A stretch of 64,000 nt of DNA from a virus: IMG/VR virus record IMGVR_UViG_3300040801_005898. The stretch is one strand, 5' to 3'. Below, piece by piece: positions 10,048-26,993 of this stretch (position 1 is its first letter; each line of letters opens with the position of its first letter). A model generated the notes under the pieces. It made no database searches. It was not told the DNA's origin and saw only the letters and a list, made by a program, of their open reading frames with translations. Position numbers and translations under genes: made by a program.

Positions 10048-10118
10048 ATTTTTTCACCGTATGGATGGGCATGGCACACATCCTTTTAAAATCTGGATGC
10101 CAGGATCTAAAAAGTGGT

Positions 10119-10160
10119 ATTTGAGAGTTTGGGATAAAAAATAATCCCAAACTCTCAAAT
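10119..10160. repeat. perfect 17-bp inverted repeat with 8-nt loop
   Basis: ATTTGAGAGTTTGGGAT / ATCCCAAACTCTCAAAT. Confidence 0.9.
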
Positions 10161-10284
10161 GATGAAGCAACCAAAAATGTTAAAAGTTTAATAAATATAT
10201 GTCAAGTTGCTTCATCGTCTAATAAAGAGTCAGTTATTAATGCAGCAATAAAAAGAAGGCTGTAGTAAATAACTGTGATAAAAT

Positions 10285-10611
10285 ATGAAAAACAAATTAG
10301 AACCATTAACCATGAACAAAAAACAAATTGTCGGAAAAACAATTAAATGGACTTCCGGGGGAAAACAAAAAACCGGAACCGTTATGGGAATAATTCTCCC
10401 AAATCACGATGTGTTGATAGATTTCCCGTTTTTAAATGATGTACCTACAGCAAGAATCACAAGGCTCGGCTCTTTGACTAGCATCAATAATAGGTTGCTA
10501 GTCAAAGTAACTACGCCCACAGGACTAGCAGCCTATTATGGCCCGCTAGTCCCAGTAGAAAATGTCAAGCAAAATATCTGGCTACCAAAAAATGCTGAAG
10601 TTATAAAGTAG
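10285..10611 (+). CDS. hypothetical protein (SH3/KOW-like beta pattern)
   Basis: IVGKTIKWTSGGKQKTGTVMGI pattern. Confidence 0.65.
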   Translation: MKNKLEPLTMNKKQIVGKTIKWTSGGKQKTGTVMGIILPNHDVLIDFPFLNDVPTARITRLGSLTSINNRLLVKVTTPTGLAAYYGPLVPVENVKQNIWLPKNAEVIK

Positions 10612-23048: not shown

Positions 23049-23189
23049 AGATGCAATGTGGCAGATTTCCAATTTTTGTGCTATGCTGATCTACAAGCAT
23101 TTAGCAGATTCCTAGAAGTCGCCAGGCGTTCGATAAAGGACCCTATTTTTATCAATGATGCCATTAGGCGTTCAGCACCTTAATTTTAC

Positions 23190-23229
23190 TTGACAAATTG
23201 ACCAAACTCCTGTAATATTGGTTTGTCAA
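23190..23229 (+). promoter_or_regulatory. sigma70 promoter flanked by an inverted repeat
   Basis: TTGACA(23190)-N17-TAATAT(23213); TTGACAAA/TTTGTCAA inverted repeat. Confidence 0.7.
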
Positions 23230-24443
23230 CTTCAAGCAAGGAAAATGTTGTGAAAAGACAACTTAACTTGTTTAGCGATCGCGCTCTAACTTGGCAAGAG
23301 CAACTACAAATAACGAAAGACAGTCTAAACAGTTACGGCAAAGACTATGACCGTTGGTTATTTTGCTTTAGCGGTGGTAAAGATTCCACCGCTACTGTAA
23401 CAATAGCAGACCACCTGTTCAACACAGGAGAAGTCAAAAAGCCCAAAGAACTCCACTGCATCTATGTAGATACGAGACAGGAACTTTTGCCACTACAGGA
23501 GTCAGCGCAACTAATCCTCAAAAAGCTATCCGATAATGGATGGCAAACTCATGTTGCGATGCCAGAGTTGGATAAAAGATTTTTGGTGTACATCCTGGGG
23601 CGTGGTGTCCCACCTCCCAACAATTCCACGTTCCGTTGGTGTACCGAAAAATTGAAACTAGCCCCGATAAAAGAAACCCTGAACAGGCTACAAGCTGACA
23701 AAGAAAAAAGTTTAATGGTCACTGGAATAAGAATGGGGGAAAGTGCAGTACGCGATCGCCGCATTCTCTATTCTTGCAGTAAAAACGCGGGAGAATGCGG
23801 TCAGGGTTGGTTTCAAAAGATGGGAAACGAATCAGATGAATATGACACCCTAGCCCCCATCCTGACCTGGCGGGTTTGTCAAGTTTGGGAGTGGCTTGTC
23901 TTGGCAGAATTAGAACACGGGTATCCGACATCATTACTGGCAGAAGTTTATGGCGGGGACGAAGCGATCGAGAAAGAGACCAGAACCGGGTGTGTCGGAT
24001 GCCCATTGGCAACCCAAGACACTGCGCTAGATAACCTGGTAAAACTAGACAAGTGGAAATATCTACAGCCATTAACTAAGCTGCGTTCTCTCTACACTGA
24101 GTTGAGAAGTTTCGATCGCCGTCTCCAAAAGACAAAACCAGAGATATTGAAAAATGGCAGTATTGGCAAAAACCCAGGGAGAAAAGGACCGCTAACCTTA
24201 GAAACTAGAAAATGGGCATTAGACCGGGTATTGGCTATCCAAGAGGAAATAAATTTTGTAGCGCAAAAAGAAAATCGCGATCGGGTTGACATTTTAACAT
24301 CAGAAGAGGAAAATAGGATTAGAGAATTAATAAGCTGTCGCACATGGCCGAATGGTTGGACCGGTGACGAGCCTGTGGGCAATAAGTTGTTTGGCCAATA
24401 TTATCAAGACGGCAGCTATCAACCTACTATTTTTGAGGTATAA
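23223..24443 (+). CDS. PAPS-reductase family protein, DndC-like
   Basis: FSGGKDS, GVPPPNNSTFRWCTEKLK, GIRMGES..R, RTGCVGCP; likely start GTG 23250. Confidence 0.85.
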   Translation: MSTSSKENVVKRQLNLFSDRALTWQEQLQITKDSLNSYGKDYDRWLFCFSGGKDSTATVTIADHLFNTGEVKKPKELHCIYVDTRQELLPLQESAQLILKKLSDNGWQTHVAMPELDKRFLVYILGRGVPPPNNSTFRWCTEKLKLAPIKETLNRLQADKEKSLMVTGIRMGESAVRDRRILYSCSKNAGECGQGWFQKMGNESDEYDTLAPILTWRVCQVWEWLVLAELEHGYPTSLLAEVYGGDEAIEKETRTGCVGCPLATQDTALDNLVKLDKWKYLQPLTKLRSLYTELRSFDRRLQKTKPEILKNGSIGKNPGRKGPLTLETRKWALDRVLAIQEEINFVAQKENRDRVDILTSEEENRIRELISCRTWPNGWTGDEPVGNKLFGQYYQDGSYQPTIFEV

Positions 24444-24444
24444 A

Positions 24445-24609
24445 ATGAAAAGTGAATTTCGCAATTGTTTGGCATATTGGGTAGAAAGAGTGTTTGATGA
24501 GGCGATCGCTCTAGTAAACAAACTTGACGTATGGCAGCAAAAACGAGCGATCGAGAAAACTCGCGCAAAATTAGAAAAACAATTCATATCTCAAAAAAAG
24601 GAGCTATAA
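24445..24609 (+). CDS. small hypothetical protein
   Basis: ATG immediately after the upstream stop. Confidence 0.5.
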   Translation: MKSEFRNCLAYWVERVFDEAIALVNKLDVWQQKRAIEKTRAKLEKQFISQKKEL

Positions 24610-24620
24610 TTAACCTGATG

Positions 24621-24692
24621 GGGCGTATAGCTTAAAGGATAAAGCACCGGGTTTCTACCCCGACAATCTAGGTTCGATTCCTAGTACGCTCG
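24621..24692 (+). tRNA. trnR: tRNA-Arg(UCU), no encoded CCA
   Basis: Acceptor GGGCGTA/TACGCTC, D arm GCTT/AAGC, loop TT-TCT-AC, T arm CTAGG-TTCGATT-CCTAG; TATAAT 10 nt upstream. Confidence 0.92.
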
Positions 24693-25663
24693 TGAGTTTG
24701 GACAGAAAATTGGTAAAAGTTATAGAGTTATTTGCCGGTGGTGGAGGATTTCGCTTAGGACTGCCTCCAGATGCCGAAATTGTTTTGGCAGTGGAGATAG
24801 ACCCAGAAATCGCCACTGTTTACGCTCGCAATTTTGACCCTCAAAATTTACGGGTCGATGACATTACAAATATTGATTTTACGCCATACAAAGGAGTCGA
24901 TTTAATTGTTGGCGGGCCGCCTTGTCAAGACTATTCAGTTGCCAACAACAAAGGAGACCGAACAAGCGATCGCTCTCAACTAGGTATGCAAATGTTGAGA
25001 GCGATCGAAGAGGCAAATCCCAAAACATTCATCTTAGAAAACGTCCGTAACTTTGGAGCAAGCCAAGTTTGGGCAAAGTTCCAAAAGCGATGTTTAGCTT
25101 TGGGATATAAAGTTGCTTGCGGGGTACTAAAAGCGGCAGATTATGGAGTACCTCAGAGCAGAAAAAGGTTTATTGCGGTAGGGACTCTTGATAAAAAACC
25201 GCCTCAACTCCCATTCCCCACTCACGATAAAGAAGGAGGATTCTTATTTAAGCATTGGGAAGGATGGTGGGACGCGATCGCTGACTTAAAGATTCCCAAG
25301 CAAGACTTAGCCCCATTTCAGCAAAATGCAATGTCTGGAAACTTGAGGCAGAAGATACTTAAAGGAGCGATCGTGCTAATTCCCCGAGTTGGATTCAACC
25401 CTAAAGACGGGTTGTTTCATCGAGACAAGTGGGAACCGGCATTTACTGTCAGGGCGTTCGGCCATAAACGGGGACATTGGGCAAAGTTTAATGTTGTCAC
25501 ATCAGAAGCCTCTTATCTTGCTTCTCCTCGATGCTTGGCAAGATGGCAAACTTTCCCAGATAGTTATGTTTTGCCCGATAATTCTTTACTGGCAGGGAAA
25601 GCGATCGGTAATGCAATTCCCCCACTGCTGGCAAAAGCTATTTTTGATGCAAATTTCAAGTAA
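24692..25663 (+). CDS. DNA cytosine-5 methyltransferase
   Basis: LFAGGGG, GGPPCQ, ENV, PQSRKR and GNAIPP motifs. Confidence 0.95.
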   Translation: MSLDRKLVKVIELFAGGGGFRLGLPPDAEIVLAVEIDPEIATVYARNFDPQNLRVDDITNIDFTPYKGVDLIVGGPPCQDYSVANNKGDRTSDRSQLGMQMLRAIEEANPKTFILENVRNFGASQVWAKFQKRCLALGYKVACGVLKAADYGVPQSRKRFIAVGTLDKKPPQLPFPTHDKEGGFLFKHWEGWWDAIADLKIPKQDLAPFQQNAMSGNLRQKILKGAIVLIPRVGFNPKDGLFHRDKWEPAFTVRAFGHKRGHWAKFNVVTSEASYLASPRCLARWQTFPDSYVLPDNSLLAGKAIGNAIPPLLAKAIFDANFK

Positions 25664-25694
25664 AACAAAAGCCGCGATTACCCAAATCGCGGCT
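25662..25694 (-). terminator. intrinsic terminator closing the minus-strand ncRNA unit
   Basis: AGCCGCGATT/AATCGCGGCT stem; T-tract on the minus strand. Confidence 0.85.
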
Positions 25695-25707
25695 ACTGAA
25701 GTGTCGA

Positions 25708-25827
25708 TGGAACAGGCCGGACTCGAACCGGCAAACCTCCCGCCCCGAACGAGATGCAGAATTGAACTGCTGGTTTACCAACACCTAAAAAAGGTGCGGG
25801 CGCTCTGCCATTTTGAGCTACTGTCCC
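25708..25827 (-). ncRNA. tRNA-Ala-like RNA with a 52-nt structured insert replacing the anticodon loop
   Basis: Acceptor GGGACAG/CTGTTCC+A (G3.U70, A73), D stem GCTC/GAGC, anticodon stem CCCGC/GCGGG, T arm GCCGG-TTCGAGT-CCGGC. Confidence 0.8.
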
Positions 25828-25829
25828 AA

Positions 25830-26144
25830 AAGTTGAGAGAGAAGTTGCACGCTCCTCTCTTACCCAGTTACCATTTCCGGGGCGCATTTATGATTCAGCG
25901 CGGCTTGCTGCAGAAGCTCTGGTTTTACCCAAAAGATTATCAGCAAGGTAACTAACCGTTCGACTTGTATTCCCCGGAGATAGTGCTATTTTTCGGAGCC
26001 GTCGCTCGCACGAGGGAAGTCTAGGCGTTTGCATCCCTAAATTTTAACCCTAACCGTTTCTCTGTCTTTTAAACGGCCTACGAATCTGCTAGGGTAATTG
26101 TAAAGCCCGACTTTACTTTCTGAAAAACATACTCATCAATTAAG
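25830..26144 (-). ncRNA. putative structured ncRNA upstream of the tRNA-like element
   Basis: Multiple perfect helices and a 7-bp pseudoknot, no ORF, promoter directly upstream. Confidence 0.6.
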
Positions 26145-26150
26145 CTGAAA

Positions 26151-26179
26151 AGCATATAATTCAAGTCTAGCAAAGTCAA
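26151..26179 (-). promoter_or_regulatory. sigma70 promoter
   Basis: TTGACT-N17-TATGCT on the minus strand. Confidence 0.7.
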
Positions 26180-26318
26180 GCTTTTTTGCCTTTAACCGAC
26201 GCAACTGACCAAATCACTTGTCAAAGGCCATAGTTTTCTCAATATCAATTTTAATGATAGCAGAGATTATCAAGATTCGCAACCGGTAAAGTCTTTATCT
26301 TTGTCAAAGCCGTGAAGG

Positions 26319-26993
26319 TTAATCTAGATTTATCAAAGTAGTTTCGTTTAACTCGTTAATCAACTCTCGGCATAAATCATTTGCCACTAACGTGTGGTTT
26401 TTTTGTATGTTTGACAAGATACGCTTTGATAGCCTTTGTGCATAAGGCAAACTCATAACAGAAATTATGCCATAATGCTCAAAAACTTTGTTAAAAACCT
26501 CCACTCGATCGCCCCAGTACAAAAAAGCGCTAACAAAACTTGTTTGCGTTTTCGGATTGCCAGTAGTAGGCTCTATGAAATGTATTCGGTTTGTCCAAAT
26601 ACATTGAGCATTTGCTTTTTTCGCGTGAGGAGCGGTACGTTCTGTTCCGAGGCAACCAACAGGAACAAGGGCGATCGCTTCTTTGATGTTGCCAACTTCT
26701 AGTTGCCGATTAATTTCCTCTATCCACCCAGAGGGATCGCTATACGGCGGATTAATAAAGGCATTTTTTTCCCAATGATGCAGCAATCCATTCTTTTTGG
26801 GCGTGTAAAATTTTATTGCATTAGTGGGATTGTCCTCCGCCGTACATGGGTCTGTGTGAATTTGTCCTTCAAATACTTCCCGCACCAATGTCAAAATATG
26901 CTCTGGTGTTTGCCAGCAGTCTTTAACTGTTACTGGTGTTGGCTTAACCTCGTATTCAAGGCCGTCAATTGTTAACTGAATATGTTCCGTCAT
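26319..26993 (-). CDS. phage-type DNA N6-adenine methyltransferase
   Basis: DCWQTP, TDPCT, FINPPYS, RIHF. Confidence 0.9.
   Translation of the reverse strand: MTEHIQLTIDGLEYEVKPTPVTVKDCWQTPEHILTLVREVFEGQIHTDPCTAEDNPTNAIKFYTPKKNGLLHHWEKNAFINPPYSDPSGWIEEINRQLEVGNIKEAIALVPVGCLGTERTAPHAKKANAQCIWTNRIHFIEPTTGNPKTQTSFVSAFLYWGDRVEVFNKVFEHYGIISVMSLPYAQRLSKRILSNIQKNHTLVANDLCRELINELNETTLINLD

Follow-up and report, generated by a model that had tools for sequence, protein, structure and literature searches.

An abundant non-coding transcript of a cyanobacterial-mat phage ends in a tRNA-like module

Between the gene for a C5 cytosine methylase (24692-25663, plus strand) and that for a Dam-type methylase (26319-26993, minus strand), both assigned by Pfam, the virus record IMGVR_UViG_3300040801_005898 has a gap of 656 nt, and the question raised by this locus is what RNA is made from the interval 25830-26179 inside it. 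All coordinates refer to the window, i.e., the whole stretch of 64,000 nucleotides that was analysed. A preliminary description had proposed an unannotated, pseudoknotted ncRNA, co-transcribed with a tRNA-like RNA in a promoter-to-terminator unit of ~480 nt. The virus is a cyanobacterial-mat phage: its phage-like genome encodes a PAPS reductase, an AAA ATPase, a DUF6011 protein and an Arc/RHH repressor; HIP1 palindromes (GCGATCGC), whose frequent occurrence we take to be a cyanobacterial hallmark, are frequent in the window; the closest named relative of the C5 methylase comes from an Okeania MAG; and the DNA runs that contain the stretch are metagenomes of salterns and microbial mats. Neither a scan for CRISPR repeats nor a Cas7-based search identified the host.

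What is made from the locus is a real and abundant transcript, non-coding and ending in a tRNA-like module. In two metatranscriptome libraries from one microbial-mat sample (X4 and X5), contigs match the window without a single mismatch. The X4 contig runs over 25706-26187 (482 nt, depth 40.9), while the X5 contig runs over 25863-26187 (325 nt, depth 52.2) and covers only the leader, no X5 contig being found over the tRNA-like module. In the same libraries, contigs of the Dam gene, which lies upstream on the same strand, have depths of 3-6, and the downstream methylase has a depth of 0. The X4 and X5 signal is therefore RNA and not DNA carry-over. Few phage ncRNAs have expression evidence from natural communities; in these hypersaline/microbial-mat metatranscriptomes, the RNA is ~ten times more abundant than its neighbour Dam. 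All expression evidence for the exact sequence derives from one study, in which four RNA libraries, made from two samples, contain 81-100% of the sampled words; the two libraries beyond X4 and X5, one of them from the second sample, hold 81-89% of the sampled words of the leader.

The X4 and X5 contigs share their end at 26187. Contigs carry no strand, exact ends or local depth, so that the ends at 26187 and 25706 could be limits of assembly; the minus strand of the transcript is deduced from the 3' end of the tRNA-like module and from the asymmetry of the fold described below. The X4 contig crosses the junction between leader and tRNA-like module (25828/25827) without a mismatch, and no terminator lies between the two in our scan. 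The proposal of an unannotated ncRNA that is co-transcribed with the tRNA-like RNA is thus borne out, in that the RNA is non-coding, highly expressed and spanned by a single contig (25706-26187). The unit length of ~480 nt holds as well, but the unit boundaries do not, as the observed RNA (26187-25706) lies ~43 nt further upstream at both ends.

The upstream boundary had been placed at a minus-strand promoter, TTGACT-N17-TATGCT (26179-26151). This site matches at only 9 of 12 positions, and 8 such sites occur in 2 kb, compared with 3.1 ± 2.0 in shuffles. Nor do the RNA data point to a transcript that begins there: the contigs of both libraries start at 26187, which is 8 nt upstream of the proposed -35 box and 43 nt upstream of the implied start. 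Given these contig starts, the proposed promoter lies within the transcript, and its two hexamers sit in the 5' arm of a hairpin, H1. No good promoter was found directly upstream of 26187. A promoter scan gives a candidate at 26282-26254 (minus strand), TTGCGA-N17-TATCAT with a TG upstream (an extended -10) and a predicted start at ~26247. The only divergent relative, ~93% identical, comes from a third metatranscriptome of another study (X7); beyond 26248 its sequence departs from that of the window, yet TGC-TACAAT stands at the place of TGC-TATCAT (18/30 positions identical in a hand alignment), which, in a comparison of two sequences, may represent a kept extended -10 of the candidate promoter. 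Between the predicted start and the abundant RNA lies a second hairpin, H0 (26228-26188, minus strand; fold with a 9-bp lower and a 6-bp upper stem). The contigs of this RNA start 1 nt after H0 and 3 nt before H1.

H1 (26184-26102, minus strand) is predicted to be an 83-nt hairpin of 33 bp (17 AU, 8 GU and 8 GC) that begins 3 nt after the 5' end of the RNA. The first 93 nt (26187-26095), which contain it, have a minimum free energy of -34.8 kcal/mol (z -6.4). Over 26090-26260, the minus-strand RNA reaches -52.2 kcal/mol (z -5.6, with 0/200 shuffles as good), compared with -22.7 kcal/mol (z +0.25) for the plus strand. A strong fold on one strand and a weak one on the other argue for a strand-specific structure at the level of the RNA and not for a DNA palindrome. 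When ~6,400 windows of 100 nt from both strands are ranked by the stability of their folds, H1 comes sixth, the top five all lying at 10.06-10.56 kb. These fold predictions suggest that H1 is the standout strand-specific structure here, and it had gone undescribed: where a terminal hairpin had been reported (26116-26100), the motif is present, but it is merely part of the 3' arm of H1 and not a hairpin of its own. The anatomy of the RNA is corrected accordingly, its boundaries, its promoter and its notable structure all differing from those first described.

A hairpin within ~4 nt of the 5' end is the mark of 5'-terminal stem-loop stabilisers of bacterial RNA, such as the ompA 5' UTR, and H1 lies 3 nt from the shared X4/X5 end at 26187, an end known from contigs only. 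Like ompA-type stabilisers, H1 is predicted to be stable, would lie within ~3 nt of the 5' end and would be expected to block 5'-end-dependent attack by RNase E; unlike them, it is unusually long (33 bp), and its 5' end is deduced from contig ends only. Three other identities for H1 were rejected. A Frpo-type single-stranded-DNA hairpin promoter would drive transcription into Dam in the antisense direction, and no fold is seen on the plus strand; a 6S-like RNA has no Rfam match here, and H1 is too short and lacks a central bubble; and as to a CRISPR-repeat mimic, only 8-mers are shared. As a separate observation, the most stable 100-nt folds of the window, clustered at 10060-10560, are mostly equally stable on both strands and include a perfect 17-bp inverted repeat (10119-10160); this cluster looks like one of DNA-level palindromes, e.g., an operator or origin.

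At the other end of the RNA, the tRNA-like module (25827-25708, minus strand) is the only real Rfam match at the locus (tRNA, 43.9 bits, E 7e-8) and folds with a z of -3.6. It has 52 nt in place of the anticodon loop, and G3-U70 and A73 can be read from its sequence. The abundant RNA is fused to a tRNA-like that should be chargeable with alanine but cannot decode. The RNA contigs of both X4 and X7 contain the 52-nt insert, so that in the assembled RNA it has not been spliced out. As to a tmRNA, including its two-piece forms, ARAGORN finds tRNA-Arg only, and no tag-type ORF appeared on reading the three frames of the 52-nt insert. The X4 contig stops 2 nt beyond the discriminator base A73 (25708), at 25706, and 36 nt short of where the terminator stem ends; this is the end of a contig and not of a molecule. 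The terminator itself (25694-25662, minus strand), consisting of a 10-bp stem at 25694-25670 and a T-tail, was recovered by the terminator scan as had been described, but it does not form part of the abundant RNA, as neither X4 nor X5 has coverage below 25706. Two small differences in the X7 relative may be recorded here: it has one T fewer in a T6 run of the 52-nt insert (25792-25787), and it keeps the terminator stem (25670-25694) with a 5-nt loop that reads roughly as the reverse complement of that of the window, as if flipped (hand alignment of a 12-letter loose end).

Comparison with this relative separates retained from dispensable parts. The X7 contigs differ from the window by 4-19% over the methylase and by 5.5-8.5% over the RNA, and the contig over the RNA, 373 nt long and with 23 substitutions, aligns with 25707-25888 and then directly with 26095-26248. 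In other words, a variable block of 206 nt (25889-26094, minus strand), present in the window, is missing from the relative. In ~335 aligned nt of RNA there are four 1-nt indels and in four methylase pieces none, which is a non-coding pattern. Substitutions amount to ~7% in the RNA and to ~6% over two long methylase pieces, where they often fall at period 3; this implies ~18% (about three times as much) at third positions, so that the retained parts of the RNA look constrained. This rough estimate, based on a single sequence pair, points to constraint on the part with H0 and H1, on the segment that follows the block, and on the tRNA-like module. The segment after the block, segment B (25888-25828, minus strand; z -1.2), is composed of a linker, a hairpin at 25860-25836 and the U-rich CAACUUUU, with which the leader ends directly before G1 of the tRNA-like module. 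The hairpin, which had been reported before as a terminal hairpin, does fold as a 9-bp stem, and in X7 two insertions of 1 nt each, after 25840 and 25853, jointly add one G-C pair to it (from -11.3 to -14.6 kcal/mol). These paired insertions are weak evidence for the hairpin, since a register slip would also tolerate each of them alone.

The body of the RNA had been described as a pseudoknotted fold of long-range helices. The sequences of these helices, AGTTACC/GGTAACT (25953-25947 with 25872-25866), TTGCTG/CAGCAA (25946-25941 with 25910-25905) and TCCGGGG/CCCCGGA (25978-25972 with 25882-25876), are indeed found on the minus strand, but their number does not exceed chance: 25830-26179 holds only three perfect 7-mer complements, namely the two 7-bp helices and the 6-bp helix extended by one pair, against 4.75 ± 2.9 in dinucleotide shuffles, 77% of which contain three or more. 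The body of the transcript as then predicted, up to the tRNA-like module (25828-26145), folds no better than shuffles (z -0.15), and the 206-nt block has a z of +0.16. That block contributes the 5' strand of each pseudoknot helix and both strands of the third helix; as it is absent from the relative, the proposed fold cannot form there. With helices at chance level, no fold signal and half of each pseudoknot helix missing in the relative, the pseudoknot is not supported.

Membership in an ornate class such as GOLLD or ROOL fared no better. Rfam 15 gave no match for the leader at the gathering score, nor at E <= 10 on sub-stretches of 901, 176 and 291 nt; at the latter threshold, GOLLD, ROOL, tmRNA, RNase P, group I and 6S were all without a match. 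The locus resembles those of GOLLD and ROOL in its phage context, in adjoining a tRNA-type gene and in its high expression. Those RNAs, however, are ~600-800 nt long and have a conserved ornate fold, whereas the leader is much shorter (360 nt), matches no covariance model and has no conserved multi-helix core, and most of its body, the 206-nt block with its lack of a fold signal, is dispensable. The model in which a GOLLD/ROOL-like RNA, or a new large motif of that kind, is transcribed from 26179-26151 can still draw on the complementary segments, which exist, and on the abundance of an RNA beside a tRNA-type gene. It is nonetheless largely refuted and hardly credible, considering that the helix count is at or below chance, that neither the body nor the block with the helices has a fold signal, that the 5' strands of both pseudoknot helices are missing in the relative, that Rfam returns nothing at E <= 10, and that the RNA starts upstream of the proposed promoter.

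We then considered what else the block could be. It is not a duplicate of flanking parts or a degenerate tRNA, for which similarity scores were at the null, nor a repeat or mobile element within the window, where it matches only itself. It does contain a 48-codon ORF (26034-25888), the longest minus-strand ORF fully upstream of the tRNA-like module. This would allow the RNA to be read as a small mRNA, with the block as a cassette for a basic peptide of 48 aa and with the 5' hairpin and the 3' tRNA-like as its stabilisers, and the geometry is suggestive: the 3' edge of the block (25889-25891) falls within the stop codon (25890-25888), the block begins 60 nt before the ATG, and more distant relatives have a small protein gene in the same slot. 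The ORF nevertheless has no credible homologue among 1.84 billion representatives (best E 2e-4 and 8e-4, to long proteins), in agreement with the earlier statement that the unit contains no credible ORF. Moreover, the two AGGG motifs upstream of the ATG are ill-spaced as Shine-Dalgarno sequences (one abuts the ATG, the other lies ~13 nt before it), the peptide, in which Arg, Ser, Thr and Ala are abundant, lacks a hydrophobic segment, and the JGI gene calls for the region give only a 40-aa ORF on the opposite strand. We therefore judge a small mRNA to be improbable.

Alternatively, the block could be an intron, the X7 contig then being the spliced RNA of a relative whose DNA keeps the block: X7 was made from RNA, and the joint between 25888 and 26095 in its contig is clean (with a 2-nt microhomology). 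Against this, X4 and X5 contain the unspliced form at a depth of 41-52 with no joint, the block boundaries show neither the omega-G of group I nor the GUGYG...AY ends of group II, and no intron family matches. The depth of the X7 contig (2.5) equals that of the X7 methylase contigs (2.8-4.9), as in DNA carry-over or a uniform low signal. Based on this parity of depth, the unspliced form in X4 and X5 and the missing group I and II signatures, splicing is much less likely than a genomic indel, and we consider the intron very improbable.

The reading that we prefer, at a probability of roughly 0.5, takes 25830-26179 to be the 5' portion of a phage transcript of ~480 nt (26187-25706 on the minus strand) that is processed and protected at its ends. 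Such a transcript is best described as a precursor or carrier RNA in which a hairpin at the 5' end is followed by a variable spacer, then by a small hairpin and finally by the tRNA-like module. Transcription would probably start near 26247 at the extended -10 promoter, or else come from read-through of the Dam operon, which has the same orientation. Cleavage in the A-rich linker just after H0 would then leave a 5' end 3 nt before H1, and the tRNA 3'-processing machinery would trim the 3' end of the RNA to within 2 nt of the discriminator base of the tRNA-like module, thereby removing the terminator. Between the two ends would lie the dispensable 206-nt spacer without a conserved fold, followed by a short conserved piece with the small hairpin and a U-rich leader of the RNase P type. 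The 5'-terminal stem-loop and the 3' tRNA fold would shield both ends, which would explain the ~ten-fold excess over the neighbouring mRNA. We infer the processing enzymes and the promoter, as well as the role of the leader, which would mainly serve the expression, stability or processing of the tRNA-like module instead of acting as an ornate, ribozyme-like RNA. A processed transcript with protected ends explains the abundance and the ends of the RNA, as well as its strand-specific fold and dispensable middle. Transcription may also start inside the transcript, at TTGACT-N17-TATGCT, which would count against the processing proposed here.

The roles of the two parts could also be reversed, with the ~360-nt leader as a functional, trans-acting phage ncRNA and the tRNA-like as a signal for its 3' maturation, RNase P cutting at 25828/25827 in the style of MALAT1/mascRNA. 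H1 is strongly structured, and the leader ends in U-rich sequence right before G1 of the tRNA-like. Furthermore, the leader-only contig of X5 (25863-26187, depth 52), a library in which no contig covers the tRNA-like, fits an independent stable leader as well as it fits a carrier. The absence of the tRNA-like from X5 is weak evidence, however, since ordinary RNA-seq libraries often lose RNAs that are structured and as small as a tRNA. In addition, 206 of the 360 nt of the leader are dispensable in the relative and have no fold signal, and the leader has no target complementarity in the window, where a single 13-mer (E 0.79) is complementary only to the non-coding strand. A leader that is itself the product is thus possible, though doubtful.

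Both readings have parallels among known systems. Phage T4 species 1 and 2 RNAs are stable small RNAs that are co-transcribed with tRNAs, and 3'ETS-leuZ is a bacterial tRNA-precursor spacer that persists. Like these, the RNA described here lies in or derives from a tRNA-type precursor, accumulates and has no ORF; unlike them, to which it has no sequence relation, it has a 5' leader of 360 nt, a terminal hairpin of 83 nt and an anticodon-less tRNA-like partner. MALAT1/mascRNA and NEAT1/menRNA are eukaryotic lncRNAs with a 3' tRNA-like processing module (PMC8457004). As in those systems, a long ncRNA lies directly 5' of a tRNA-like on one transcript, and the tRNA machinery would be expected to set the junction and the ends. 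MALAT1/mascRNA is nevertheless a eukaryotic nuclear system without homology to this locus, in which cleavage at the junction is our proposal, and our tRNA-like, unlike mascRNA, has all four arms and a 52-nt domain in place of the anticodon loop; in line with this, the mascRNA model of Rfam scores it at 15.7 bits, compared with a gathering score of 42.5. In the MHV68 TMERs, a viral tRNA-like is fused to hairpin RNAs (PMC4337559). The combination of a virus-encoded tRNA-like and long hairpins on one transcript is shared, but the TMERs belong to an animal herpesvirus, are Pol III transcripts, begin with the tRNA-like and carry pre-miRNA hairpins, none of which applies to bacteria.

A more far-reaching version, which we regard as unlikely, is a bipartite phage RNA device, i.e., a hairpin-capped ncRNA whose 3' end would be made, and possibly alanylated, by way of an anticodon-less tRNA-like of alanine identity, with the leader or the whole chimera acting in trans on the host. 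If true, it would be the counterpart in a bacterial virus of MALAT1-mascRNA or of the 3' tRNA-like structures of plant viruses, and could, e.g., act as a decoy, be it for defences that target tRNAs or for the machinery of translation or tRNA processing. More generally, should the leader and the tRNA-like act together, they would be a new phage route to make or stabilise a regulatory or decoy RNA through the tRNA machinery of the host; should they not, the RNA would be an orphan, well-protected precursor of limited general interest.

The RNA has a narrow distribution. In contigs with close variants of the methylase, the RNA region is 100% identical to the window, while the cassette is absent near methylase relatives of 73-83% identity and Dam relatives of 52-63% identity. 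In more distant relatives (methylase 75%, Dam 63% identical), a gene of 76-80 aa occupies its slot, and other relatives have a different gene directly after the methylase or Dam. As other genes thus fill the slot in distant relatives, the RNA cassette is a lineage-specific accessory. Neither a distant-mode blastn search of phages and plasmids with 25650-26330 nor Dam-based searches for the locus in viral and genome contigs yielded a useful homologue of the RNA; exact-pattern scans of viral, genome and metagenome contigs with the 5' half, D-arm and T-arm of the tRNA-like returned ordinary tRNA T-arms only, and a C-terminal methylase fragment, used as a query for short contigs of the ~93% relative, found no match.

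Two features of the neighbourhood deserve mention in their own right. A tRNA-Arg(TCT) gene at 24621-24692 immediately precedes the C5 methylase gene or overlaps the start called for it; relatives with a 73-83% identical methylase (loci L001-L003) keep the two together, but not the cassette of ncRNA and tRNA-like. Further upstream, the phage genome holds a solitary CRISPR repeat (23141-23178, plus strand), one copy that is identical at 35 of 37 positions to a 37-nt repeat. In another contig, L010, the same 37-nt repeat forms an array of at least 5 units (2207-2551) beside cas genes (Pfam matches to DevT, DevR and Cas5d), and beyond the array this contig is 98-100% identical to 23142-23254 and 23317-25748 of the window. 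The 62 nt between those two parts (23255-23316), just inside the start of the PAPS-reductase ORF, are missing from L010, and the PAPS-reductase gene call is 406 aa in the window and 318 aa in L010. The solitary repeat might act as a Racr-type RNA anti-CRISPR (PMC10651486), be what is left of an array in a CRISPR-Cas-carrying variant, or have caused a chimeric assembly.
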